This document shows, in pieces, positions 5,475 to 41,366 of a stretch of 41,366 nt of DNA; within the stretch, counting starts at the first letter, position 1; each line of letters begins with the position of its first letter. The translations under genes were made by a program, and so were the position numbers. Under the pieces are notes generated by a model. The model had not been told where the DNA came from. It saw only the letters and a list, made by a program, of their open reading frames with translations, and did not search any database. Origin of the DNA: Neophaeotheca triangularis (taxonomy: Eukaryota); the NCBI GenBank assembly GCA_054600435.1, contig BAAIJX010000024.1, forward strand, positions 310,001 to 351,366. Reading direction: 5' to 3'.

Positions 5475-7529
5475 ATGGCGAGACCACGCAACGCATCGGG
5501 CACGCAGGCCGTCGCGCCGCCACCAAACACACGCAGCACTCGCGCCGCATTGAAGGAAAAGACCAACACGACGCGCCACGCACCAACCTACGAAAATGAC
5601 GGAGACACCGAAGCTCTTGTCAAAGAGGCCAAGCCACGAAGAGGGAGACCCAAGAAAGCATCACCGACAGGAGAGGCATACACCATGAGAGGCGGGCTTG
5701 GATCTAGCGACGCGCCCGCGACCGAGAACCCGGCGCAAACTGACGCAGCCATGAGTACGGATCCGCTGGCACGTGTGACCAGCGATGTCGCACCCAGCAC
5801 TGATCCATTGGCCAAAAGTGATGAGGCGGAAGCGCCGCAGCCGAAAGGACGAGGTCGTCCGGCGCGAACGAAACGGAAGATTGCACAGAGTGAAGCCCAG
5901 ACGAAGATGTTTGCGGGTATGCGCCAGCGTATGGAGGCGACTGCAAAGGGCGAAACCGCGCGTCAGAACGAGTCTGCGGCTGCTGTACCGCCCGACCAAC
6001 CTACGACCGATACACCGCGCGCTGCAACCAAAAAAGCGTCCGGAGTTCCTGCTGCCTCGACCAACGAACGCTCCGACTTGTCACTATCACCTTCTCCCCC
6101 TCGCGCTGGTAAATTGAGTACTGTCAAAGGTCATCCATCAATGGCTCCGGGCTCCACTCTGCGAGTACAGGGAACTCCTGCGATCGATACTAGCATTCTG
6201 AAGAATTTTAAGCGCAGACCGCGGCAGCAGAGTATGCTACAGATGGTGAAGCAGAGAACCTCACTCGCCCACCAGCAGTCTCAAATGCTCAATGACGAGA
6301 GCGTGTACGATTTGGAGGATCTGGATGATGATGTCGAAGATGAGTTTGCACCAGAGGCGGAGGGTACGCCGTTGCGTGCGAACAAAACCAGACGTCAGTC
6401 GAGTGCTGCAAAGAAGACGGCTCCCAAGTCGGCGCAAAAATCTACGCCCCTGACCGAAAAGATCTCGAAGAAACGCAAGTCTGACGATGTTACAAGCTCT
6501 ACCAGCGCTCTGGACGCTCTGCATGCGAAGCGGAGAAAGTCTGCAGCGCCTGTTGAGGAAGACGTTGTCGTGGAAGACAGCCAGAAAAACAAGCTCGCTA
6601 AACACCCACCTGAACCAGTGAGGGAATCTCCTCCAAAGCTTGCTTCTGGAGTTCAAGTCATCGGCTCCTCTCCGATACCATCTTCTCCGCTCACCGAAGC
6701 CTCCCCGGCGCGTGAGGCTCAACACGTTGACGACGGCGACGCTGTAGTCCCATCCACCGAAGAGCAGCAGGCAGAAACACACAATGACCTGCCCCAGGAT
6801 CTCGACCCCGGCATACCTGACGACGACCAACATATGGACCCCTTGAACAGCACAATGGCAGACCCAGCAAGCAGCAGCCCGCCCCCTGAAGCAGCCCGCC
6901 CACTCGCAACCCAACGCACAGACATTTTCGCAGACCCAATAACCCAACGCACGCCCTCACCACGACGAGAAACCCGCAAGAAAAAAGCCTCGCCCAAACC
7001 CCTCACAACAGCTAAACTCCAAGCCCTCCTGCCCAAACGCCGAGCAAAGCGACAACCCGCTCGCTGGCGGACCGAATTCGACCTCCCGTCTGGCTCGGAA
7101 GATGAAAACGAAGAGCCCTCGGACAGCGAGAGGGAAACCCGCACTCGAAGGAAGACGAAAACAAAAGTTAGCGCGGGCAAAACCAGCAAGGCTGCCTCCA
7201 AGACCAAGCCGAAAACGCGCACAGCCCAAAACATCTCATCCCGCAAAACCACCGCGCCCCAAAAGAGCCCAGCCGCGACAACAAAGCCCAAACGCACCTA
7301 CGGCCGGAAAGACCAGGATAAAGAGAACTCGCACCCAGCTGCTTCGGACGACGAGGAAGAAGGTGAAGCTTCCGTCTTGCCGGACACGACGATGAGTTCA
7401 CTTGAAGTCTCGAAGAGTGCCGAGCTGGAGGCTGCGAGGCGAAAGTTTGCCGAGATTGATCAGTGGGATATGGAGTTTGAGAGTTTGGGGGGTGAAGAGC
7501 ATCGGAGTAGTAGTCAGGGGTGGAGGTGA
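5475..7529 (+). CDS. Low-complexity nuclear protein with AT-hook-like motifs; probable Sororin-like cohesin regulator
   Basis: Long intronless ORF, likely start MARPR at 5475. RRGRPK and GRGRP AT-hook-like motifs, RTYGRK followed by a KEN box, and a C-terminal KFAEIDQWDMEFE resembling the Sororin C-terminal motif. Coding status is firm; the function is inferred. Confidence 0.7.
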   Translation: MARPRNASGTQAVAPPPNTRSTRAALKEKTNTTRHAPTYENDGDTEALVKEAKPRRGRPKKASPTGEAYTMRGGLGSSDAPATENPAQTDAAMSTDPLARVTSDVAPSTDPLAKSDEAEAPQPKGRGRPARTKRKIAQSEAQTKMFAGMRQRMEATAKGETARQNESAAAVPPDQPTTDTPRAATKKASGVPAASTNERSDLSLSPSPPRAGKLSTVKGHPSMAPGSTLRVQGTPAIDTSILKNFKRRPRQQSMLQMVKQRTSLAHQQSQMLNDESVYDLEDLDDDVEDEFAPEAEGTPLRANKTRRQSSAAKKTAPKSAQKSTPLTEKISKKRKSDDVTSSTSALDALHAKRRKSAAPVEEDVVVEDSQKNKLAKHPPEPVRESPPKLASGVQVIGSSPIPSSPLTEASPAREAQHVDDGDAVVPSTEEQQAETHNDLPQDLDPGIPDDDQHMDPLNSTMADPASSSPPPEAARPLATQRTDIFADPITQRTPSPRRETRKKKASPKPLTTAKLQALLPKRRAKRQPARWRTEFDLPSGSEDENEEPSDSERETRTRRKTKTKVSAGKTSKAASKTKPKTRTAQNISSRKTTAPQKSPAATTKPKRTYGRKDQDKENSHPAASDDEEEGEASVLPDTTMSSLEVSKSAELEAARRKFAEIDQWDMEFESLGGEEHRSSSQGWR

Positions 7530-9989: not shown

Positions 9990-10596
9990 GGGGTTGGCTT
10001 GGGATTGTAGTTGGGGGGTGGCTGGGGCGCGTGGACTTTAGGAGGGGGAATGGGTTAGGGGAAAAGAGCGGAGAACGCGTGAGATGATAGTGATGGCGAT
10101 GTGGTGAAGGACGATGAACCGGTCTTAATCCGTAGGTAGGTATTATGACTTAGTATTTTGCGACTCGCCCTTTTTATCTTTCACATCTACGGCGTATACG
10201 GTGAGTAGCACGTAAGCCCACGGTAGCACGTAGCGGTAGGTAGTAGGAGCCTATAGTAGAGGGAGGACTAGGGGGTGTAGTAGGAGTAAGTTAGTGATAA
10301 TTAGCTACCCTCGACTCTAGTAAAACCAAAACCCCTCGAACCGCTCGCTATTCGGTGATACTTCGGACTCTTTCTCCGTCTTCCCCGCGCGTGGCTGAAT
10401 AGGTAGGGCTGCTTGACTTTATGCTACAAATGCAAAATTCAAAATGCAAATGTAAACGTTTGTTTTAGATCTACATTGTCAAGACTCGATTTAGTTAGTT
10501 AGAGGGGTTTGGTCTTTAACCAGCCGGTTTGCTCGATACCTATAGGTATTAGTGGGTTGGATTGGAGAGTGAGGTGGGTGCTTGTTGCTTTTTATT

Positions 10597-10700
10597 GTAC
10601 TACTGTACTAATATACTACTACGCTAATATACTACTGTACTACTATACTACTATACTACTATACTACTATACTACTACACTACTACACTACTACGCTAAT
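10597..10700. repeat. Degenerate TACTACTA-type simple repeat
   Basis: tactactatactactatactactatactactatactactacactactacactactac. Confidence 0.8.
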
Positions 10701-12193
10701 AGAGTAGAGCGTTACTTCCACAGGGAGTAGGGCATGGCGTGGAGGCTAACGGTAAAAAACCAAGCGAGCTACCTTGCCTACCAAGGCGCCTAAGGTTGTG
10801 TTTTTGGGTTGCATGCATACTGTACTGTAGCGTACACTTTTTCCAAGCCAGTCGGTTGATAGGGAAGGGTTCCGGTTAGTGGTGCGGCGGGCTGCGGGTT
10901 GCTTTGGGTGTCACGATACTTATTAATTGCTACGTTGGATCTGTACTTGGGTTCGGCTGAGCTGGGCTGCGCTGTGCTGTCTGTTTTGCTGTCTGTTTTG
11001 CTGTCTGTCTTGTCGAAGAGTGGATGGGGGCTTGCTTCGCTCTCGTAGCTAGTGTGGTTTGGTTGGTTGATTGGTTGGTTGGTTGGTTGATTTGGGCACG
11101 GGGAAGGGGAGGTGAGAGCCGATTTGTTATGTGTTGGGCATGCATAATGTGAGTAAGGTGGGTATTTTGTCTTTCGCGGCGGTGAAGATGATAGAGGTTC
11201 GCGTTTTCTACCCGGCGATGCTGTTGCTATCGTCTAAGGTAGGTACCTTACTTGGGTCTGAGGATGGCGGTAGCGATGGCGATGGCGGTAACGGCGGCCA
11301 TGCAGTTGGTCGAGGTTTTCGCGCCACGTGTCATGGCTTTTGGTGAATATTATGTAGATGGGAGATTTCGAGGGTGTTGTGACTTGTCGGAGGAGGAAGA
11401 AATGTGCACGCCCCGTGTTACTCCGTGAAGATCCGATCTGCAGGTCGTGGGGGTATACCGGCACGTGAATAACTACCAACCTAGGTGGGTTTGGTGGGTA
11501 GGGACTGGTTACAGTTTACCTTTCCGTCTCTCGGCTCGGACCTAACTTGATACAGACTACCTAAGGTACAGACTACTACAACTGTCACTACATATACATA
11601 TACATATACAGTACATACTATCCACTGTATTGGATTGCCCTCTCTTTTCTCAACTCGCCACTTGATATAAAAGCTTCCAATTCAATCAATAAGGCATTTT
11701 CCGTCTCTTCGCACTGTTTGTCCCCGGTACCGTGCGTCATCTTCAACATTTCTCACCCATAGCCCCTATCTCTCGTTTCGTCTTCCTCTTCCTCTTCCTC
11801 TTCTTCTTCACAACAACAACATCACCCGATCGTCGACAGGAACAGCAAACGGCGACTAGTCTTTATTAGCAGTAGTTCAAGCCTAGACCTACCCTTCCAG
11901 ACTATAGTAGTACTCCATGCCCATCATATCATCATACCACACCCTACCTCTACTACATACTACCTATACCACCACACCTCGCTCTCCCCACTCCTACCTG
12001 TCACCCCACTATACCCTACTAGTCTCGAACACAGCAGATCCGGCTACACCGCAGCATTAGTACATGACCTCCTCCCCGACACCACCATCACCGCACATAT
12101 CAAATCCGCTTATCATCAATAAACGTGACTTCACCCTCGACAATCACGAAGAGATTTGGACCGTCGTCGTCGTCGTCGTCTCAGACAATCATC

Positions 12194-14294
12194 ATGGCCC
12201 CTCAAGAGCCTCTCCAAGACATTAGATACTCCTACGACATCAACAGATCAAACAACAGCACTCGCGACTCTCTAGACTGCCAAGATGAAGACGCCTACTT
12301 CTACCGCCCTTCATACTCCAACAGCGATCGCTCATATCACACTCAACCCTCCGACTACTCAACTAGCCCCGTCTACCCTACAAAACGACCAGCCCTCCTC
12401 CACCACCACGACACATGTCCAAACCGTATACCCCCCGATCCAGCAGCAAGCAATACCAGCTCCATAAACACCTACACCTCCACAATCCCAAGCATCGCCT
12501 CCATCGCAAAAGAAGAACAAGAACAAGAACACGCATACTCCTCAAACACCCCACCCTCTTACCACTCGACCACATCCCTTCAACCCATCCCAGCAACCCC
12601 CTCCGACTTTTCCGAACTCTTCCCCTCGCCTCGTCGCCTGGACATCCGCCACGATGACACTACCCTCGACGGCAACATGAACCTCCGCATCGACACGCAC
12701 GTCCTCAGCGACGCCGGCCAAAACCAGCAAACCATCACCCTCTTCCACCTACGTATGCACGACCTCAAAACACGGGACTTCTCTTTACGGCGATACCACC
12801 GCGATTCTGGAAGGGAAGTCTGCCATTCCGTGAGGAAAACCGCGCAACAGCCCAAACCTCCTGCTGCCGCTGTTACCACCGGCTCTGTCCGACCCAGTCT
12901 CCAGCGCTCCATGACCAGCGCCCTACGCACTCTCCGCTCCAAATCCGAGCACAAAGCCTCCACCCTCACCACCTCTCACACCCGCGACTCAGGCTACTCC
13001 TCGACCCACTCCAGCGATCCTCAACCCACTGCCAGCTCTTCAACTCCGCGTCCGCAATCCGCCCACAACCCTTCCCAACTCCCACCACAGCCCAAACCGA
13101 AGCCGAAAACGCTCTCAAGCAAAGACAGCTCCATCAAACTCGAATTCGCAAACTACGCCCAAACAAGCCTCAACCCGCGGTCGTCTTCGACAAGCAAAAG
13201 GCCCAAACGTTGGGATTTCGAGTACTGGGGTCTCGCTTACAGTTGGCGCAAAGTTTTTAACAAGAAGAACCGCACTTCCACTTCTAGCTCTGGAGGAGGA
13301 GGTTTGGGTTTCGAGTACCAGCTTACACGTACCGGTAGGAGTGGTGGTGGTAGTGGTGGTGGTAATGGTGGCAGGGGTGAGGTTTTGGCGTACATTGTTC
13401 CCGTTCCTTTGACGCCGGAGCAGGGGGTCGATGAGAGGGCAAAGGGGGGCTGGGTTCCTCCGTGTAGGTTGTGGGTTGTGGATGAGACCGTTTTGAAGGG
13501 GGAGAAGGATGTTGTTGAGTAAGTTCTACTTCTTCTTTTTTTTGTTTTTCTCTTTTCTCTCTTGGGACTTTTTGTGGGGGGTTTTTTTTTTTTTTTTGAG
13601 GTTTCTTGGTTTTCGGTGGTTCGATCATCTGGGGCGGGGTTTTTGAGGTGGGAGTTTGGAGATGGGAGACCTAGGAGCTCTAGAATTTGGGCTAGCTCTC
13701 CTGAGCGATTCGAGGTGTGGTCTTGGGTTCGCCGGCTCCTGGTTCGGACTTGCAAGTGTTGTGGCTTGTTCACTCGCTCTTGCTCCAGGGTCGATCTTGG
13801 AGGTCTTGTGGCTTACTCGCTCGCACTTCGTCCGCCTCTGCCCATGACGGATGAAGGAGAAGCAATCGCAGCACATCCTGGAAACTTCACTTCCGCAGCA
13901 TTGTCCCGAAGCGTTTTGATACCTGGGAAACTTGCTTGCTCAACCTCTTCCTTTCTCCCTCCCGCTTCTACCCCATCTAAAAGCTAACACAAACCCAATC
14001 ACCCCCTTCCCCTATTCCCGAACATACGAACATCTTGAAAAAAAGGAGTTGAAGAGAGAAGAGCAAGAGTCGAAAGAACGCACGCTAACCTGACCCCCCA
14101 TCTACAGCGTCGTAGTCGCCACAGCCCTCATAGCCCTCGTCGACGACGCTATCGCGACCAACTTCGGTCCTACAGCTCGCGACAGTAGCAAAAAACCTTC
14201 CACTACCACCACCACTACTACTACTAATAACAACAGTCGACCGGCCAAGCTATCTAAACGCAGCAACACTACCCCTTCTAGTCACCACTACTAA
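12194..14294 (+). CDS. Conserved fungal hypothetical protein; exons 12194-13518 and 14108-14294
   Basis: Globular-looking blocks DIRHDDTTLDGNMNLRIDT, TLFHLRMHDLKTRDFSLRRYHRDSGREVCHS, IKLEFANYAQ and KGGWVPPCRLWVVD. A GTAAGT...GCTAAC...CAG intron joins these to DVVDVVVATALIALVDD. C-terminal end uncertain. Confidence 0.8.
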
Positions 14295-14896
14295 GCAAAC
14301 CCATACCCCTAGCAACGGCAACATGGTCGCAACCCACTACCGCGCTCCGTCTCCCACTATAATTTTCGGACGTGTATGTAGCAGTAGACGTAGAATAAAA
14401 CTAGTAACCCCCTCGCTCCCTTTCCCCCCTTCGAAACCGCCGAACCTAAAAGTAAAAGCCCATCCCTTATCGAAGCTAACGCGTAGCTGTAGAGTCGAGT
14501 TTGTAGCGCCGAAACGGTTTTGGAGCGAGGCTGTTTCCGCTAGGGGGAAAATTACGGGGGCTAGACAAGGGCATTACCGGGCTAAGGAGGCGTGTTAACT
14601 AGTCTAGACCAGCCGATAGATTTCCTTCTTAACGTAACGCCGAGTGTATATATGTATAGTTATTCCCGTCCGTCTAGATAGAGGGAGTAGCTATAAGCTA
14701 CCCTACTAGGTTAGTCGAATAGGATAGCTCGTCAGGCCTATTTGTTACTTATAATGACTTGGCCTATCGCCTATCGAGCGCTCGCGGAGCCGGCGTCGGC
14801 TATAGCCTCTATTAGGCGTGAGGATAACCCCTCCCCCCCGAGTATACATACCTTCGGTTAACGCGACGCTAAAGGAGATCGTGAGGTCTCTAGCTA

Positions 14897-16013
14897 CTAA
14901 GCAGGGCTCCGTCGCAAACGAAATGCGGATGGGAGTGAGGAATAGTGGGGAACCAGGAACCATGGCCCCGTCCGCTCGGGCATTTCGTTTGCGTATGAGA
15001 AGGGGTACGCCGAATTAAAGGCACCGAGGATCGACTTCCCTTTAGCCAACCCTATGTAAAAGGAGCGCGGGAACGCCACGGCGTGATTGTAATCTTTCTA
15101 ATGGTCTGTCTATGGCGATGGTCTGACTAACCTTGTTTTTTTTGGATGGCGTGGCATTGATCTGTAAGGAAACACGGACTGGACTAGACGGCGTGAAGGG
15201 ATTTTTGTGCATCTTGGACGATTCCATCGAGATGGTCCGGCTTCACTGGTTTGAATTGGTCGTTGTCTTCGACGAGGCAGATGCCCTGGGAACTACCGTG
15301 GCTGGCAATGTGAACGATGTAGGGCTTGTGCTCCAGTATCGCTCTATACAGGTCGCGCGAACAATATCGCGGAACGGGTACGATGGCGATAGACTTGGTG
15401 CAGCGAATTTGACGTCTCAGGGAGCTCCTTTTCTTGTTTCAGGGATTGCGCATTTGATGGGTTAGCCGACACGAATAGAGACATCGTAGAGTGTATCTTG
15501 GAGCTTCGTCGGGAGACGCTGCAAATCGTTGTGCACTCGCTCGTCCAAGGCTCTATTCTTGCCCTTGACGATTCGTTCCAATCATTGAAACAGGGCTTTG
15601 TAACCTTTTGACCTGAGCTTCCGCGATCTCGGTCCCAATCGTCTCCAAGCGAGTTTGCAGTCAATCGCTACTAGAGCTGTATAGCCACATGCCCATTGCT
15701 GAGACGATCGTGAAATAGACCCTTGTGGCTGTCAGGGTCATATCGGCCCAATGTGCGGCCAATCTCCTCGACGAATTTTCTTCCAGACCCCTCGAGCATC
15801 TCGCTTGCTTTCGTGATCGTACGACTGGATCTGAATGCGGACCTGTTGAAGTCCTCAATCCAAGAACTGTAACAGTCGCAACGTTTATCTTCGGTCATGT
15901 TTTTGTTGGCTAGATAGGATTCCAAGCCAAATGAGGCTTCCTGAGATGAAGGCTTGATCGAGGGTAACGGAATCGAATCGCGCAACGTTTCCAAGAATAT
16001 TCGCTTGAGCCAT
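14897..16013 (-). pseudogene. Decayed CHAT-domain (caspase-like, clan CD) protease with a helical, probably HeLo-like N-terminal domain
   Basis: Stitching frames gives LFVSANPSNAQSLKQEKEL / RDLYRAILEHKPYIVHIASHGSSQGICLVEDND / SLHAV*SSPCF / VSQTIAIDRPL / AVAFPRSFYIGLAKGKSILGAFNSA, the CHAT motif order with a His (15298-15300) and Cys (15172-15174) dyad. Several frameshifts and TAG stops. Confidence 0.75.
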
Positions 16014-16464
16014 GTTCCAAGGTCAGCTAGTCTACGTTGATAGGTGCGGTGAGCCGTGGATATGCTGAATTTTTAAAGGGATGTGGAGAAATGTGGAAGG
16101 GTCACGGTATGCTAGCTAGGCACTGTGAAACTGAAGGTCAGAAGAGAGGTTGTGGCAATACATACCTATGAGTGCCGGAGTATAGTACGGAAAATGAACC
16201 GGAGGAGGCATGTACAAGGCCGTAGACCGCTCTGATTCTACTCTTTAGAAACTGGCGGCTCGTTTCCGTCTCTGGACTTGAACGTCACAACGCATCAATG
16301 GCCAGTCCAGCGAGTTCCGGAGGAGTAGTGGATAGATAGACGAAGGGTCGGGAAGAGTCGTTGGATCGTTGACCATCGCTCGACAGGCTACATCCCTAGC
16401 TATTACGGATTTCTATAGGTGGCATTGACACGCAGTCGCACAGTCGTGCATTACTCATCATGTT

Positions 16465-17543
16465 CTAAAGCTCCTCCTTAAAACCCTGCTCGCCGCTCGC
16501 AAGTTCCCTTGCGCCCAACTCCGTCAGTGCCATCGCTCGCGAACCCGCGAAGGCAGGATCAGGCGAGAGTTTTCGCACGCCCATGAAGTCTACGGATCCG
16601 CCGTTGGTGAACTGCTTCTCGAGGACTTGACGAAGCGTCGTTGTCATATTGTCTTCGTCGGCCATTTCTCCGAAGACTATGACTGAGTCGAGAGAATCGT
16701 TATCGGTGCGGTGCGGCTCGCTGACGCTACTCAGCGCGGCTTTGAAGCGTTTATAGCAGTCGTTCGGATCGTCTGCAGTCTCTGTGCAGCGTGACAAAGC
16801 GTTGTGGCCAATGTCGCCAGAACTGGCGCGGCCAATGATATCTACCACGCCACATTCCTCCCTCCATAGGATAGCTGTCATGGACTCGCGTGTGTATTCG
16901 ACGGTCATGATGAGGCGTTCTGGATCCTCGCGAAACGCCGGATCGTCCGGGCGGATGTACGGATCTGAGCAAGTCCCATGCTTTCCAAAAGCCTGGACGA
17001 GCTGGCTTGCTCCATGTTCGAGGCGATCCCAGCCGTATACACCTAGGTCCTTCAAGGCTGACTCTACGGTTTGCTGAGCCATTTCGTCCTTGAAGTTGCC
17101 GGGATCATAGGCAGACACGGCTATGGAGTGGATGTCTGTCTCGAGCGCGGTCTCTGCGGCGGCAACGAGCGCTTTAAGCATGGGTGCGAGAGATTGGTTC
17201 ACACGGGCCCTCCGAATAGGCCAAAAGTCGCATAATCGTAGTGAGAATGGGCAGTACCTGGGAACATTGAAGGTGTTGCCTTGGTCGGACGAGCCGAGCA
17301 TGTGCGCTTTGTATCGATCGCCGCCTTCAATTTTGGCTATATCGATGTAGCTGCCATTTGGAAAGCGAGCGCTCACGGTTCTAGAGAGTAGTTGTTACCT
17401 GGTGGTGCCCTTGATTAATCTTAAATCGGAGAGCCTCACGCATATCCGCTCGATAGAGAGATCCCGAGACCTGGGCCATCGTGTATTACAGTACTCGAGT
17501 GAGATAAGGCCGAGAATGGGAGCAGAACGTGTTGCCACCGCAT
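16465..17543 (-). CDS. Secretory-pathway protein with a degenerate Hsp70/actin-like ATPase fold and C-terminal KEEL; exons 17543-17440 and 17380-16465
   Basis: Exon 1 MRWQHVLLPFSALSHSS...GLGISLSSGYA, a 59-nt GTGAGG...TAG intron (17381-17439), then an open 303-codon frame ending FKEEL*. Confidence 0.75.
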
Positions 17544-17787
17544 CTTGCTTGTTGTCGTTATCTATAATGCGATGGAAGGAGAAAGATGCGGAGAGCCAGG
17601 TAGAGCAGACCGGACGCTCCAGCGCTTTACAGTTATCAGACGTTACTCACCACTCCTAAGGCGGTCATTCCACGTATGCGCGTAGTAGCGCTGGAAGGAC
17701 CGCTACAGCCTACAGCCTCGTATATCTCACATTCATTGGAGAACCTGGTCTGTCATTCACGCGCGACTTTGCTGATTTAATTGAGGC

Positions 17788-17800
17788 TTAGGGTTAGGGT
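17788..17800 (+). repeat. Interstitial telomeric repeat (TTAGGG)2T
   Basis: ttagggttagggt, same orientation as the terminal telomere. Confidence 0.8.
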
Positions 17801-17805
17801 ACATA

Positions 17806-19142
17806 ATGCAAGCGAAAGGGGCTCGACTGCAAGTCGATCGACGGGTATGCTCGGAACGTCAACTGGCTCTTCTGGACTTACGGCCATATCAACATGTGTG
17901 ACCCGTACATTAGCTTGCCAGACATGTCTTACAAGATGCAACATCTCAACGATCGAGGAAGGAAAGGGCTGTTAACAAGTTGCAGGATATGCAGTGTTAC
18001 TAGACACTCGGTGAGAAGATGCTTCGCGGAATGATGCACCTTTACCCTGAGCCACACATCATCGACAAATACCTCGAAGGCGCCGGCTGATAATTCACAG
18101 ACGACAAACGCGCCTACGGACCTAAGCAAGTGCGTCGGTTACCACATGGCGATGCTATAGGTAAGAAGATTTTCAGCTGAGCCAAAGCCTCGACCGTCAA
18201 CGCCGATGGTTATGAAATGCTCATCAACTCCATGTTCTGGTGCGATATGACTTAGTACTTCCCCGGCGTGCCTGGCAGAAAGAAGGCTCCGGTCCGACTG
18301 GCCTACCGGCACCTCTTGTCGTCTTCCCCTCCGTCTCTCTAGGCAACGAGACCGACGTTTCCTCGTAGAGCCTTGACGACAATCTCAGTAACGCTGTCAA
18401 CGAGTACCCCGCAGCGAATGACGACTTGGAAGCCAATTCCGATGTGTGGACCGACGAAGACTCCCACGACGACTCTGATGAAGATACTAACTAAGGCTCT
18501 AATAAAGACTCAGACTCAGACTCAGACTCTGACGAAACACTGCCAGTTGCAGATGATCAAAATCCCTACCATGGCGTTAGTGGCGACTACTAGGTGTTAT
18601 CCGCGACACGGCCGTTGACAACGTGGAGGATCTGCAGTCAGACTGACCTGGGGAAGAAGTACAGTTTAGATTCCTTCCACGAACTCTAGTTGTCGGTCAG
18701 AAAGCTCGACGACGACAGTAAAGGCCCGAAGGATGCCCCAGACCTCTTTGGCCGCTTTAAGGGCGCTATCCATAGCTGCGATGGAAATAAGCCTACTCAC
18801 AATCCTCACAACTACAAGTATGGCTCTCCTCTGACGACTGCCGACGGCTAGGGGTACAAAATGACACCGCTTTGCAAGCAGGTAAACGAGGTCAGATGTG
18901 ACGTTTCCTATAAGGTCTTCCACGGCTTTATCGAAATCCGCGGTGAGAATCTACTAGATACTATGCTAGGCGCTGAGCGCGAGGGCCTGAAACGTGAATT
19001 ATCTGGTTGCGAACTGCTTACAAAGTGGTATTTCGGACGTATACACCCGACCTTTGCTGCTTCCAGTGGGGCGCGAAAGGACACCTGCCGACGGGACAAC
19101 GGCCTGTGTTGGCCGCGCGCTCATCTCGGCTGGTGGTTCTAG
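17806..19142 (+). pseudogene. Stop-riddled pseudogene of unknown family with an acidic linker
   Basis: Protein-like text across two frames (MLRGMMHLYPEPHIIDKYLEGAG; YEMLINSMFWCDMT; DEDSHDDSDEDTN*GSNKDSDSDSDSDE; DLFGRFKGAIH; VFHGFIEIRGENLL) interrupted by isolated TAG/TAA/TGA codons compatible with C-to-T changes. Confidence 0.55.
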
Positions 19143-32737: not shown

Positions 32738-35008
32738 ATGCGTCACGCAATCACTTTCGCTGCTTTGAGCAGCTTCGTTTCCGCGAGCCCTCTCCATCGC
32801 CGTGCTCCTTGTGACCCTCAGAATGTGGGTGCCCCAGGTGCTCCTGCTCCGGTGCCAAACACCCCTGCTGCTTTCGCGAACAATGATGTCTACGACTCAT
32901 TGTCGAGCGATGCAGCCACGCCGGATGGCTACGACCAAGTCTTTGCCAACCTGGCCGCTTCCAACAGGTAAGTCCAGATACCACGGCTACCATAGTAGAC
33001 AAAGCGCTGACGCCTCGCCAGTGCGCCCCAATACCTCACTACGACTTCCTTGGACTTCTACGACCCCTCCGCTTGCGCCAACACCTGCAACGGCATCGAC
33101 GGCTGCGTGTCTTTCAACATTTACCTCGAGCGTTCTCCTAGCGTCGAGCCTGGTTACTCGCAGTGCCAGAACCCCGAGGCCGTCACGACCATCCACTGCG
33201 GTTTCTGGGGCAGCGAAATTTCTGCCGCCAACGCCGATAACACTGGCCAGTTCCGGGCTGACTTCCAGATTCTCATTGCTGCTGCCAATGGGTACGTGAG
33301 GGCCTTGGACGAGCCTGTTACCACTTCGAGCTCCGCTGCGATCGAGACCTCGACTGCCGTTCCTGAGACGAGCACGATTGCGTCGGAGAGCGCGACAGAG
33401 ACAGAAACGCTGCTTCCCACCGACACTGCCGTTCCTGAGTTGACCACTTCGAGCGTCATCCCAACAGAGACCGTCGTTCCAGAGCCAACTACATCCTCCG
33501 ACAGCACCACGGTCATCGACGAGCCTACTTCTACCGTCTCCGAGAGCCTGACCGAAACTGTCATCCCAGTGCCGTCCGAAACCGCCACCCTCGAGCCTAC
33601 TACATCGAGTGCTGTTGCGACCGAGACCGCGGCCCCAGAACCCACCGTTTCCGAGAGCGCCACCGTTATCGACGGCACAACTTCGACTGTCATTGCAGTG
33701 CCGTCCGAAACCGCCACCCTCGAGCCTACTACATCGAGTGCTATTGCGACCGAGACCGCGGCTCCAGAACCCACCGTTTCCGAGAGCGCCACCCTTATCG
33801 ACGGCACAACTTCATCTGTCGTTTCCGTGACTCTAAGTGAGACCGACCTACCTCTCCCTTCTGACACCGTCACTCTGGAGCCTACCACAGAGAGCGCAAT
33901 CCCAGAGCTCACGACATCTACTTTTGTTTCGGAGAGCACCATCAGTGCTAATGGGACCAGCTTCACCATGTCGGAGACCATCTCCGAGACTGGCTTTCCC
34001 ACCTTGAGTGAGACTGCCGCTCCGATTGAGACCTCGACCTTTGCGTCCGTGAGCGCTTCCGGCATCAATACAACCAGCTTCACTGCCTCCGAGACTGCGA
34101 CCGAGACTGCCGCTCCGATCGAGACCTCTACCTTTGCGTCCGTGAGCGCTTCCGGTATTAACGCAACCAGCTTCACTGCCTCCGAGACTGCGACCGAGAC
34201 TGCCGCTCCGATCGAGACCTCTACCTTTGCGTCCGTGAGCGCTTCCGGTATTAACGCAACCAGCTTCACCGCCTCCGAGACTGCGACTGCTGCGCCCATT
34301 GAAACCTCTACCTTTGCTTCCGCCAGCGCTTCCGGCATCAACGCAACCACTGCTGCTCCGATTGAAACCTCTACCTTTGCTTCCGCCAGCGCTTCCGGCA
34401 TCAACGCAACCACTGCCGCTCCGATCGAGACTTCTACCTTTGCTTCCGCCAGCGCTTCCGGCATCAACGCAACCACTGCCGCTCCGATCGAGACCTCTAC
34501 CTTTGCTTCCGCTAGCGCTTCCGGCATCAACGCAACCACTGCCGCTCCGATCGAGACATCTACTTTTGCTTCCGTCAGCGCTTCCGGTATTAACGCAACT
34601 AGCTTCACCGTCTCCGAGACCGCGACTGCTGCGCCCATTGAGACTTCCACTTTCAACTTCGGGAACGCTACACTTTCGGAAGTCGTAACTGCGACCGACG
34701 CCCCCGTCGTAATCCCCACAACCTCTACGTTCCTCTCCACAAGCGCTACAGTCATCGACGGCACTACCTCCTCCGTAGCTGTGATTGTCACCGAGACTGA
34801 GGCTCCCGCCCTAGAGCCGACGACCTCCACAGTCATCTCCGAAAGCGCGACTGTCGTAGATGGCACTACCTCCTCCGTGGCTGTGATCGTCACGGAGACT
34901 ATCCTCCCAATCTGGACCTCGACGTTCAACCCTGAGGATGCCCTCCTCACCGGAGCCGTTACTCCTATCTTGGAGCCGATCGCGACGGCGGAGTCGACGG
35001 TTGTTTAG
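32738..35008 (+). CDS. Secreted protein with an N-terminal Cys-rich domain and a long Ser/Thr/Glu-rich mucin-like repeat stalk; intron 32968-33021
   Basis: Signal peptide MRHAITFAALSSFVSA plus RR pro-site; TPDGY..F.NL.AS, YDPSACANTC..GCVSFNIYLER.PS..C.NP..CGFWG..GQFR.DFQILIAAANGY; GTAAGT...GCTGAC...CAG intron in frame. Confidence 0.88.
33567..34640 (+). repeat. In-frame coding tandem repeats: 129 bp x2, 93 bp x3, 63 bp x~5
   Basis: Units VPSETATLEPTTSSA..TETAAPEPTVSESAT.IDGTTS (33567, 33696), TETAAPIETSTFASVSASGINATSFTASETA (34010-34285) and TAAPIETSTFASASASGINAT (34286-34600). Confidence 0.9.
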
Positions 35009-38324: not shown

Positions 38325-39551
38325 ATGGCCAACGTTAAAGGCGCCCTTTCCATCACGGCCCGCCAAGAGCTGCGAACCTCTTTGGCCCAAGAAAAGAGAG
38401 ACCCTTTGATATGCGCGGTTCCTAAAGTCGAGCTCCACGTCCACATCGAAGGCACTCTAACCCCCGAATTAAGATGGAAGTTCTCCCGGCGAAACGGCAT
38501 GACACTTAGCCACCCTCGTACTGGCGCGGTCTTCTCGACTCTACAACAACTGCGCGACTCTCATGACACTATGAAACCTCTCCAAGAAGGGCCGACAAGC
38601 AATGCCGAAGAGACTTTGTCATTCTTCGAAGCCTACTACGGCGGGTTCGAGGTTTTAAAGACGACTCAGGATTACTACGATCTTGCCATGCATTACTTCG
38701 AGCGTGCCGCGGAGATGAATGTGCGATATTGCGAGGTTTTCTTTGACCCGCAAGGCCATACTCGTACCGGGACGACGTGGGAAACCATGATGACCGGCTT
38801 CCGTTCAGCTCAGGAAAAGGCTGAGAAGGAACTTAATGTGCGTAGAGAAAGGAACGTAGAGCTAACGGTTTAGATATTGACACAATTGCGACAGGTGAGA
38901 AGTGCATGGATAATGTGCTTGCTCCGCGACGAATCTCCCGAATCAGGAAAGGAGCACTACCTCGCCGCCCTTGCTTACCGCGATATGATAGTGGGTATAG
39001 GACTCGATTCAAACGAAGACCAGCGACCGCCTTTGTTGTTCGACGAAATATATGTCCGAGCAAGAACAGACGGCTTCCGTCTAACGGCGCACTGCGATGT
39101 GGGCAAAGCGTATCCTCTCGAGCATGTCCGTCAAGTAGTATCATCGATCGGCGGCAACGGCGCCGAACGTATCGATCACGGTTTGAATGCTACAGACAGC
39201 CTAGAGTTGATACATCTAATACGTCGAAAGGGAATCGGTATGACAATCTGTCCGTGGTCATACATTCGGCACCAGCCGTTCGACGAGGTCTTCAAACGCA
39301 TTCGCATGCTCTTTGATGCTGGCATCCGAATTGCAATCGCAAGCGATGATCCGACTTTTATGGAGAACGCCTGGATAAATGAGAATTTGCTGCTTGTGAA
39401 GGAGTTTTGCAATTTTGATGACAACGATGTTCTTCGATTGATAGAAGACGCGATAGAAGTCTGTTGGGCACCTGATGAGGTTAAGAAGGACATTCTTAAG
39501 GAGTTACGTAGCATTAGTAGGATAGTTAGCAAGCGAGCGAGGAACGAGTAA
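38325..39551 (+). CDS. AAH1: Adenine deaminase (adenosine/AMP deaminase family); intron 38838-38894
   Basis: PKVELHVHIEGTL, YCEVFFDPQGH, GIGLDSNE, LTAHCD, RIDHG, TICPW and IASDDP. Confidence 0.9.
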
Positions 39552-39619
39552 GGGGTAGGCATCGGACGGTCGCACGACTCGCTAAATATAATGCCATGGT
39601 GAAAATGCCTTAATTCCAT

Positions 39620-41246
39620 TTGATTTTAGTGAGGATTTTTAGCGCGAAATTCTAATAGGGGGGTATTGTCATTTGTTAATAGAGGGCACTTCTATTTATT
39701 AATCCTTAACTAATACTTCTAAAATTTTGATAGTTATAATGTAAGCTAAATTAGCTAGTAGAGCTAAAATCTTAGAGCATTTAAATAACTCTTAAGGTTA
39801 TAATCTAGTATAGCCTAAAAAGTAAAGTTCTTTATACTAAGGAAGCTCTAGCTAATTAGGGTTAGAGGGTATAAAGCTAGCTTACTAAGCTAACTAGCTA
39901 GCTAATAAGCTATATAGCTAGCTAGCTAACTATATAGCTAGTAGCTATTAAGCTAGTAGTTATTTATTATGACTATAGTACTAGTAGGATAATAGTAGCC
40001 TAGTAGTAAAGAGCTTAGGAGTACTAAGTATATATACTATAAAAGTATATAAGATAGCTATTAGTAAAGCCTCCTATCTACTATTAAATAGTTTCTATAT
40101 TAAAGGACTATTACTATTATTACTATTATTATACTCTACCCTCGCTATACTATAATCTTAACTAAGTTATAGTCTTAGTCTTATAATTCTATTTGATCTT
40201 AGAACCTCTTTAGGTTAAGATTTGCTTAGACATTATAGTACTAGCCTACTCGCTATATCCTTAGGTTAATAATACTAACCTAGTAGACTCTTCTAATACT
40301 ATAACTAGAGTTAATACCTTATAAGAATAAGAAGAGATAGTAATAGACTAATATATAGTTCTTACTAACTATAATGCTACGACTAAATTACGGCAATTTA
40401 ATTTAAAATAGGTAAGGATTTTAGTACTAAATTTTAACTAAGAGGGTAGTTTAATTTAGAAAGAGGTAGCAATTTACTATTTACTAGTACCTTAGATCTT
40501 CCCTATACTTTTATAGTTTAGACTATAAATTAATTCTGTAGTCAAAAATCAAATTTAGGATATTTAAACTATAGACTATTAAGAGATAGATTTTCGAAAA
40601 GAAGTAGTATTCTTAATATAGGTATAGCTAAGTAGTAACTTTAGGGGCTACTCTCTTCCTTTACTACTAGAGAGATATATTACGACCGAGGATATCTACT
40701 AAGTAGTTATTACGACTATAACACTAGTAGGATAACGGCGGCCTAAGCTATAGAGTAGCTCGAGAGTACTAAGTATATATACTATAAAAGTATATAAGAT
40801 AGCTAATAGTAAAGCCTCCTGTCTACTATTAAATAGTTTCTATATTAAAGGACTATTACTATTATTACTATTATTATATTCTACCCTTACTATACCGTAA
40901 TCCTAACTAAGTTATAGTCTCGGTCTTATAATTCTATTCGATCTTAGAACCTTTTTAGGTTAAGATTCGCTTAGACATTATAGTATAGACTTATTATTAA
41001 TTAAGCCTAATCAAATCAAAATCAATTTACCTACCGTTTTGACTTAAACTTAGTATTAAATCAAGATCAATTTAATTAAACCGTAGACCTACTAAGATTA
41101 ATCTAAGGGGTAGCTTAATTAATAAGCCTTATTAAGGCTTAATAGGGTTATAGGGGGTTATATGACTAATATGTTTATAAGTGAATGTTACTAGTTTACA
41201 AACTAAACTCTAACCCTACTACTTATTAGAGCTTATCGTAGCTACC
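39620..41246. other. AT-rich, RIP-mutated subtelomeric DNA
   Basis: Abrupt drop in GC, TpA very abundant, CpA/TpG scarce, no ORFs in the track. Confidence 0.9.
39965..40985. mobile_element. Pair of ~275-bp RIP-degenerate direct repeats (39965-40240 and 40708-40985), LTR-like
   Basis: The copies align almost exactly from gagtactaag to gacattatagta, and the differences are nearly all transitions. Ends tattacg...cattata could be RIP-mutated TG...CA LTR termini. The repeat is certain; LTR identity is inferred. Confidence 0.6.
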
Positions 41247-41366
41247 TTAGGGTTAGGGTTAGGGTTAGGGTTAGGGTTAGGGTTAGGGTTAGGGTTAGGG
41301 TTAGGGTTAGGGTTAGGGTTAGGGTTAGGGTTAGGGTTAGGGTTAGGGTTAGGGTTAGGGTTAGGG
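41247..41366 (+). repeat. Telomere (TTAGGG)20
   Basis: Perfect TTAGGG array running to the end of the sequence with the G-rich strand 5'->3' toward the terminus. Confidence 0.99.

Follow-up and report, generated by a model that had tools for sequence, protein, structure and literature searches.

Probable unitary pseudogene of a rare fungal-type family, an orphan helical domain fused to a compact CHAT, near a chromosome end of Neophaeotheca triangularis

The relic, its reading path and its lesions

The window is a stretch of 41,366 nucleotides (nt) of Neophaeotheca triangularis (GenBank assembly GCA_054600435.1, contig BAAIJX010000024.1, positions 310,001 to 351,366 of the forward strand). It is eukaryotic, of fungal type. 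On its minus strand lies the relic of a single gene in two parts, an all-helical N-terminal domain (N-domain) and, directly behind it, a compact CHAT (caspase-like) protease domain. No long open reading frame (ORF) covers the region, and the neighbour genes of the relic are still open (ORFs of 713 and 767 codons). Both halves are homologous to a family with intact members, the family has a single-gene layout, and the copy in the window carries disabling lesions. Coordinates are listed in Table 1.

Table 1. Features of the relic and of its 3' flank, in window coordinates
Feature	Position	Strand	Remarks
Pseudogene, aligned span	15008..16013	-	Frame-skipping alignment to positions 1-336 of the intact-family profile (N-domain and CHAT)
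N-domain remnant, about 170 residues, all-helical, of no recognisable family	15489..16013	-	Skips near 15938, 15748, 15609; in-path TGA 15661-15663 and TGA 15582-15584
Compact CHAT (caspase-like) remnant, from LFVSANP to the last strand (..GPWFLV)	14960..15488	-	Skips near 15488, 15385, 15144, 15098; in-path TAG 15184-15186
Catalytic-position His, CAC (HIASHG)	15298..15300	-	Aligned with the His invariant in 54 of 54 CHAT sequences
Catalytic-position Cys, TGT (SSPCF)	15172..15174	-	Aligned with the Cys of LNAC, which is invariant
Tail of the last open piece	14894..14959	-	Two stops at its end, 14897-14899 and 14894-14896
Flank 3' of the relic	13900..14900		TpA/ApT 1.3-2.55; (CpA+TpG)/(ApC+GpT) 0.42-0.79; about 50% GC; differs from relic and surrounding genes

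The peptide strings quoted for this locus by a first-pass annotation, made from the letters alone, are all recovered, each at its stated position, when the minus strand is translated in three frames. LFVSANP is read in frame 2; RDLYRAILEHKPYIVHIASHG contains the catalytic-position His, V*SSPCF (asterisk, stop) contains the Cys and the TAG ahead of it, and GICLVED, TIAI and AVAFPRSFYIGLAKGKSILGAF are present. Two strings fall in the upstream part: MAQANILGNVARF, which begins at ATG 16011-16013, and FVEEIGRTLGRYD, which runs on to IQL and the stops TAG TAG at 15668-15673. The N-domain remnant starts at the same ATG with MAQANILGN... and matches the invariant M-x-Q-x-G-x-x-G start of the intact relatives.

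The reading path was obtained by frameshift-tolerant local alignment to a BLOSUM62-averaged family profile, with scores of -6 for a gap, -8 for a frame skip and -4 for a stop. It leads from 16013 (profile position 1) to 15008 (profile position 336) with seven one-base skips and three in-path stops; 114 of 321 aligned residues are identical to the family consensus. All three stops are inside aligned, conserved segments, one of them three codons ahead of the catalytic Cys. Since 336 profile positions are spanned by 1006 nt and every frame change is a single base, introns have no room. The claim of the first pass that the gene is decayed is borne out by these lesions. Its upstream reading is not. 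In the alignment, frame-0 TRVYFTIVSAMG falls on A.AIYFIIGNA.G, a conserved stretch of the family, and near 15748 the path guided by the family departs from frame 2, so that GRYD..FHDRLS..IQL and the double TAG lie off the path. That string, formerly taken for ancestral N-terminal protein, is probably out-of-frame text, and an origin of TAG TAG from CAG CAG, as had been proposed, is not supported. The relic has no composition of the kind left by repeat-induced point mutation (RIP). Its dinucleotide indices (TpA/ApT 0.54, (CpA+TpG)/(ApC+GpT) 1.21; set against the usual RIP thresholds) resemble those of intact genes, which gives no sign of RIP behind the stops; RIP as their cause is rejected.

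It is very unlikely that the gene is intact and that its breaks are introns or assembly or sequencing errors. Short introns are usual in fungal genes, and a probable intron of 70 nt follows the CHAT part of one intact relative; in the relic the single-base skips leave no intron space, the stops interrupt conserved segments, and the flanking genes are open. Contigs of run X1 (Logan, another assembler, possibly the source sample) are identical to the window over 13608-18000 (0 differences). X2, a second sample under the same organism label, carries the locus as pairs of half-depth contigs with about 90-97% identity. Among the indels listed, X2 has further ones within the relic: two bases are missing at 15143, and 15 are added at 15862 in one contig of a half-depth pair, which fits neutral decay. 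Run X5 (same organism label) does not cover the locus and X4 covers it by a 187-nt contig only; neither is used as evidence.

Over 13000-18000 the half-depth contig pairs of X2 differ by 3-10%, with transitions about 1.8 times as frequent as transversions. This suggests two haplotypes or a mixture.

The relatives have a disordered tail and a ZZ-like finger. No similarity to them is found in the tail of the last open piece or further downstream by tblastn (E at least 0.27), and a frame-tolerant search downstream scores 34.0 against controls of 26.9 +/- 4.8 (maximum 44.5). The flank beyond may be foreign, RIP-affected or degraded repeat DNA that replaced the 3' part of the gene.

Homology of the two halves

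The CHAT half was searched with P0001, a 77-codon frame-0 piece (15130-15360) that holds the His and Cys codons and in which the single TAG is read as X. Against 1.84 billion representative proteins it has 128 matches with E values of 1e-3 or less and down to 4.7e-11; almost all of them align with residues 2-74. A word-index search with the same 77 residues, set to longer proteins, gives seven candidates, none of which scored. PF12770 (CHAT) is found at E <= 1e-3 in 29 of the 30 best matches, and 28 reach the 24-bit gathering score. Partner domains among these 30 are TRADD-like_N, EAD11, iSTAND, AAA_35, sigma-70 r4, Mrr_cat and receiver domains. On sequence comparison, an assignment of the C-terminal half of the relic to the compact CHAT seen mostly in conflict proteins of bacterial type is supported, in agreement with the first pass. 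Only three columns are invariant in a 54-sequence CHAT alignment, a Pro and the catalytic His and Cys, and the window keeps both catalytic codons, His then Cys, in the conserved order. The Caspase-hemoglobinase alpha/beta fold of CHAT is found as well; an intact frame is not (about seven frame skips, three in-path stops). The SAVED_CHAT profile of PADLOC matches two of four queries (P0026 and P0055, best E 2.4e-5) and does not match P0005 or P0001.

Intact relatives are three, P0005, P0026 and P0055, each with N-domain and CHAT in a single ORF. Their core identity to the relic is 31-42%, highest in P0005 (42%), which starts MGQLGVIGNIPCFDELT where the window has MAQANILGNVARFDSVT. P0026 (36.8 bits) and P0005 (33.5 bits) pass the 24-bit cut-off of PF12770, and for P0055 the precomputed list gives PF12770; no interruption is present in the P0055 gene over residues 1-501. 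By tblastn, P0005 finds in the window three CHAT pieces that are colinear and lie in two frames (joint E 7e-14), and an N-terminal piece whose first residue is the initial Met of both sequences (E 0.018). Residues 1-165 of P0005, compared with the P0001 matches, find P0026 (1.4e-26) and P0055 (5.4e-14). All three relatives align (alignment A1) over about 350 residues, with the N-domain first and then ILFV.ADP ... HFSGHG ... LNAC ... FY.ALG.G. The same layout in three single-ORF relatives, with no NACHT or TPR between the parts, makes N-domain and CHAT one gene, and the direct fusion noticed by the first pass is upheld. Its expectation of intact alleles in relatives holds in part: intact relatives exist, and at this distance they are not alleles.

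The N-domain part was located by a hidden Markov model (HMM) of the first 362 columns of the three-relative alignment, run on each of the 1767 pieces into which the six-frame translation of the window falls. Its six best matches, and seven of the eight best, are on the minus strand of 14900-16072. They are colinear with the profile, at positions 1-22, 31-59, 64-89, 84-116, 174-196, 213-273 and 310-351. In the frameshift-tolerant alignment the N-domain scores 78.2 on 15480-16100 (controls 21.0 +/- 2.8, maximum 29.7) and the CHAT scores 199.7 on 14850-15500 (controls 24.1 +/- 3.5, maximum 38.0). Controls are 384 equally long stretches taken on both strands elsewhere in the window, and are exceeded by 20 standard deviations (SD) for the N-domain and 51 SD for the CHAT. 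The only point in favour of a chance likeness of non-coding DNA to CHAT motifs is that no single piece has a Pfam match; the P0001 search, the colinear HMM matches and the scores above controls refute it, and its probability is practically nil.

The N-domain belongs to no recognisable family. A profile search of 5.8 billion proteins returns the three known members only; the search covered longer proteins, which places stand-alone N-domains outside its scope. A pattern scan of 185,579 prokaryotic genomes gives 60 pattern matches, none confirmed, which is weak evidence on the prokaryotes. The sole Pfam match of the intact N-domains is Lar_N (E 0.025), in one of three. AlphaFold models of P0005 (residues 1-167; predicted local distance difference test, pLDDT, 66.5) and P0055 (residues 1-360; pLDDT 88.9) have seven helices after an unstructured, conserved N-terminus; in both, residues 1-14 are modelled as coil of low confidence, with charged residues present.

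The first pass regarded this half as a HeLo-like/SesA domain, which would make the ancestor a direct fusion of a membrane-targeting, pore-forming cell-death domain with a caspase. For HeLo-like, SesA and HeLo the accessions are presumably PF17111, PF17107 and PF14479. In its place at the N-terminus and its helical make-up (seven helices in two independent models) the domain is like them, one intact relative adjoins an NLR-like gene, and a very distant helical-bundle homology may escape the tools used. Matches are lacking throughout. HeLo, Helo_like_N, SesA and Goodbye match none of eight window pieces and none of three intact N-domains at E <= 10 (Pfam; the HMMER filters may hide very weak matches). 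PDB sequence and fold searches with the N-domain return generic helical bundles only, the best sequence match (E 0.11) being a designed bundle, and the ESM Atlas gives no usable match for the window N-terminal piece or for residues 1-176 of P0026. HeLo and HELL domains are MLKL-4HB-like bundles in which a functional N-terminal helix is key for membrane targeting (PMC12881547); the first 14 residues here are modelled as a charged coil and not as such a helix. The HeLo-like identity is judged unlikely.

Comparison with known systems and putative function

The locus is read as a dead, intronless copy (unitary pseudogene) of a rare fungal-type family in which an orphan all-helical N-domain is fused directly to a compact CHAT; its ancestral protein would have been a regulated cysteine protease. 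The probability given to this reading is about 0.88.

Several known systems are close to the family in part. The SAVED-CHAT protease of type III-B CRISPR (PDB 8tl0; bioRxiv 10.1101/2023.06.23.546230) has a SAVED nucleotide sensor where the present family has a helical-bundle N-domain; the family is found on contigs of eukaryote type, there is no sign of a cyclic-nucleotide system, and the window copy is dead. Bacterial-type conflict proteins, in which a compact CHAT is joined to EAD11, TRADD-like_N, iSTAND, TIR, AAA_35 or a receiver (e.g. P0131, TIR_2 and CHAT), make up the bulk of the CHAT-core neighbours. They have the motif pattern ILF..ANP, H.P.IVHFSGHG, LNAC and FY..L..G in common with the relic, but none has its N-domain.

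Fungal CHAT proteases are described as HET-Q2-like partners of gasdermins, a TPR-CHAT protein of Podospora having been shown to process an adjacent gasdermin (Clave et al. 2022, PMC8851545). According to the same paper, fungal CHAT proteins often have long unannotated N- or C-termini, annotation being available for 33% of 1,499. The heterokaryon incompatibility (het) determinant hetB of Aspergillus fumigatus is a CHAT protein of 1,327 residues (PMC11138114). The present family is like them in being a fungal caspase-like CHAT protease, known there from cell-death or allorecognition settings. The described cases are large (for instance a TPR-CHAT of about 1,000 residues); their CHAT usually follows repeats, and a gasdermin gene lies beside them, whereas the present family is small, has CHAT behind the orphan helical domain, and shows no repeats or gasdermin neighbour detected in the window or in L001, the locus of P0055. 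HeLo, HeLo-like (HELL) and SesA domains of fungal NLRs are alike in N-terminal place, helical make-up and immune-related fungal context, and differ by the absence of any profile, sequence or fold match and by an extreme N-terminus not modelled as a helix. What distinguishes the family is its small size, its orphan N-domain and a CHAT of the SAVED-CHAT type. No description of the N-domain and CHAT combination was found in the literature searched (a non-exhaustive search of texts, with supplements such as Dataset S2 of PMC8851545 outside its scope).

The surroundings of one intact relative, P0055, are covered by L001 (16.1 kb of a 32.6-kb metagenome contig). A divergent NLR-like gene lies upstream of P0055 (L001 3-3014, minus strand). 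This gene carries TPR_10/TPR_12 repeats (E 3.4e-66) and a P-loop, GGQGKS; below threshold it also matches NACHT (E 0.006) and nSTAND5 (E 0.003). Its 5' part looks interrupted; upstream pieces of it resemble, by eye, a SesB-like lipase. P0055 as called (501 residues) is probably too short. It ends before a likely intron of 70 nt (GT...AG, L001 6098-6167), and very likely its ORF continues in frame through that intron into the ORF 6168-6976, for about 270 further codons. The Cys-rich end of this ORF shows homology with the C-terminal end of P0026 (E 3e-9, three-sequence database) and gives sub-threshold ZZ matches (ZZ_ADA2, E 0.03). In intact members a ZZ-like zinc finger is the probable end of the disordered tail.

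The ancestral protein would have been a regulated His/Cys cysteine protease. On the analogy of SAVED-CHAT and the fungal HET-Q2-like proteases, its non-catalytic N-domain would have controlled activation by sensing or oligomerisation, and the protease would have cleaved a target further down an immune or cell-death pathway linked to NLRs. In the window, the copy would since have lost its function and drifted neutrally, its C-terminal part lost or no longer visible.

A more detailed picture is tentative and rather improbable. ZZ fingers read protein N-termini, and a ZZ-like finger could thus bind the conserved N-terminus of a neighbouring molecule. The family would then be an undescribed eukaryotic (fungal-type) immune module, a SAVED-CHAT-like compact caspase with the sensor replaced by the orphan seven-helix domain, in which the finger binds the free MxQAGILG N-terminus of its neighbour and head-to-tail filaments switch the protease on, possibly under control of the adjacent NLR-like gene. 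In that case fungi would have an equivalent of the activation of SAVED-CHAT by filaments.

The following points weigh against the reading as a dead copy of a regulated protease. None of eight single-frame window pieces matches Pfam CHAT at E <= 10, so the CHAT assignment is by transitive homology. Single HMM matches of the N-domain are weak (E 0.2-8), their significance coming only from order, place and joint alignment score. The count of seven frame skips is a minimum, and both number and exact places depend on the scoring scheme; another path, via frame 1 at 15741-15854, would cost two more skips. X2 may share all of the lesions of the window copy or only a part of them. An intact paralogue may exist elsewhere in the genome, the analysis having covered the window only. 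The functional part of the explanation is pure analogy, with no target, gasdermin or partner found near the relic. The gasdermin link raised by the first pass receives no support in the window, where none of 84 ORFs (20 of at least 150 codons and 64 more of at least 75 codons at 8.5-24 kb) has a Pfam match to gasdermin or NLR families, nor in L001, where no gasdermin is recognised by Pfam among 15 ORFs and half of the contig is covered; Pfam coverage of fungal gasdermins was not checked in either case. The NLR-like neighbour is a single case, and two ORFs of L001 resemble small secreted proteins by eye.

The relic is without present function; its value is that of a pointer to a rare fungal-type CHAT family. 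It is also a readable fossil of a caspase-like gene, preserved in the subtelomeric DNA of this fungus. The family is very rare, an unknown helical domain with a CHAT closest to that of bacterial SAVED-CHAT, and searches of 1.84 and 5.8 billion proteins show only three intact members. Frame-tolerant profile reading of such fossils can reveal families that gene callers overlook. If the family is one of immune or cell-death proteases, a compact bacterial-type caspase module would be added to the fungal repertoire beyond the TPR-CHAT/gasdermin pairs.

Surroundings of the relic in the window

Among the products encoded in the window are a peptidase of M1/LTA4-hydrolase type, a U-box protein resembling CHIP, a kinase and a fragment of GH28. 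A (TTAGGG)n array closes the window (41247-41366) after AT-rich DNA; the window is thus a chromosome end, with the relic about 25 kb from it, and the location of the relic is subtelomeric. On its own strand the relic is directly preceded by an ORF of 309 codons (16465-17394, minus strand), for which neither Pfam nor a PDB sequence search gives a match.

The last 2 kb or so before the chromosome end (39000-41200) have 28-41% GC and RIP-like indices (TpA/ApT 1.84, (CpA+TpG)/(ApC+GpT) 0.23). A direct repeat of 229 nt is present near the chromosome end, with copies at 40012 and 40757. The ORF at 33011-35008 (665 codons) is made of tandem repeats of 63, 93, 102 and 129 nt and has no Pfam match; judged from the repeat units, its product is Ser/Thr-rich and cell-wall or adhesin-like in look. 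An intergenic tandem array of an 8-nt unit, TACTACTA-like and repeated about 15 times, is present at 10585-10706.
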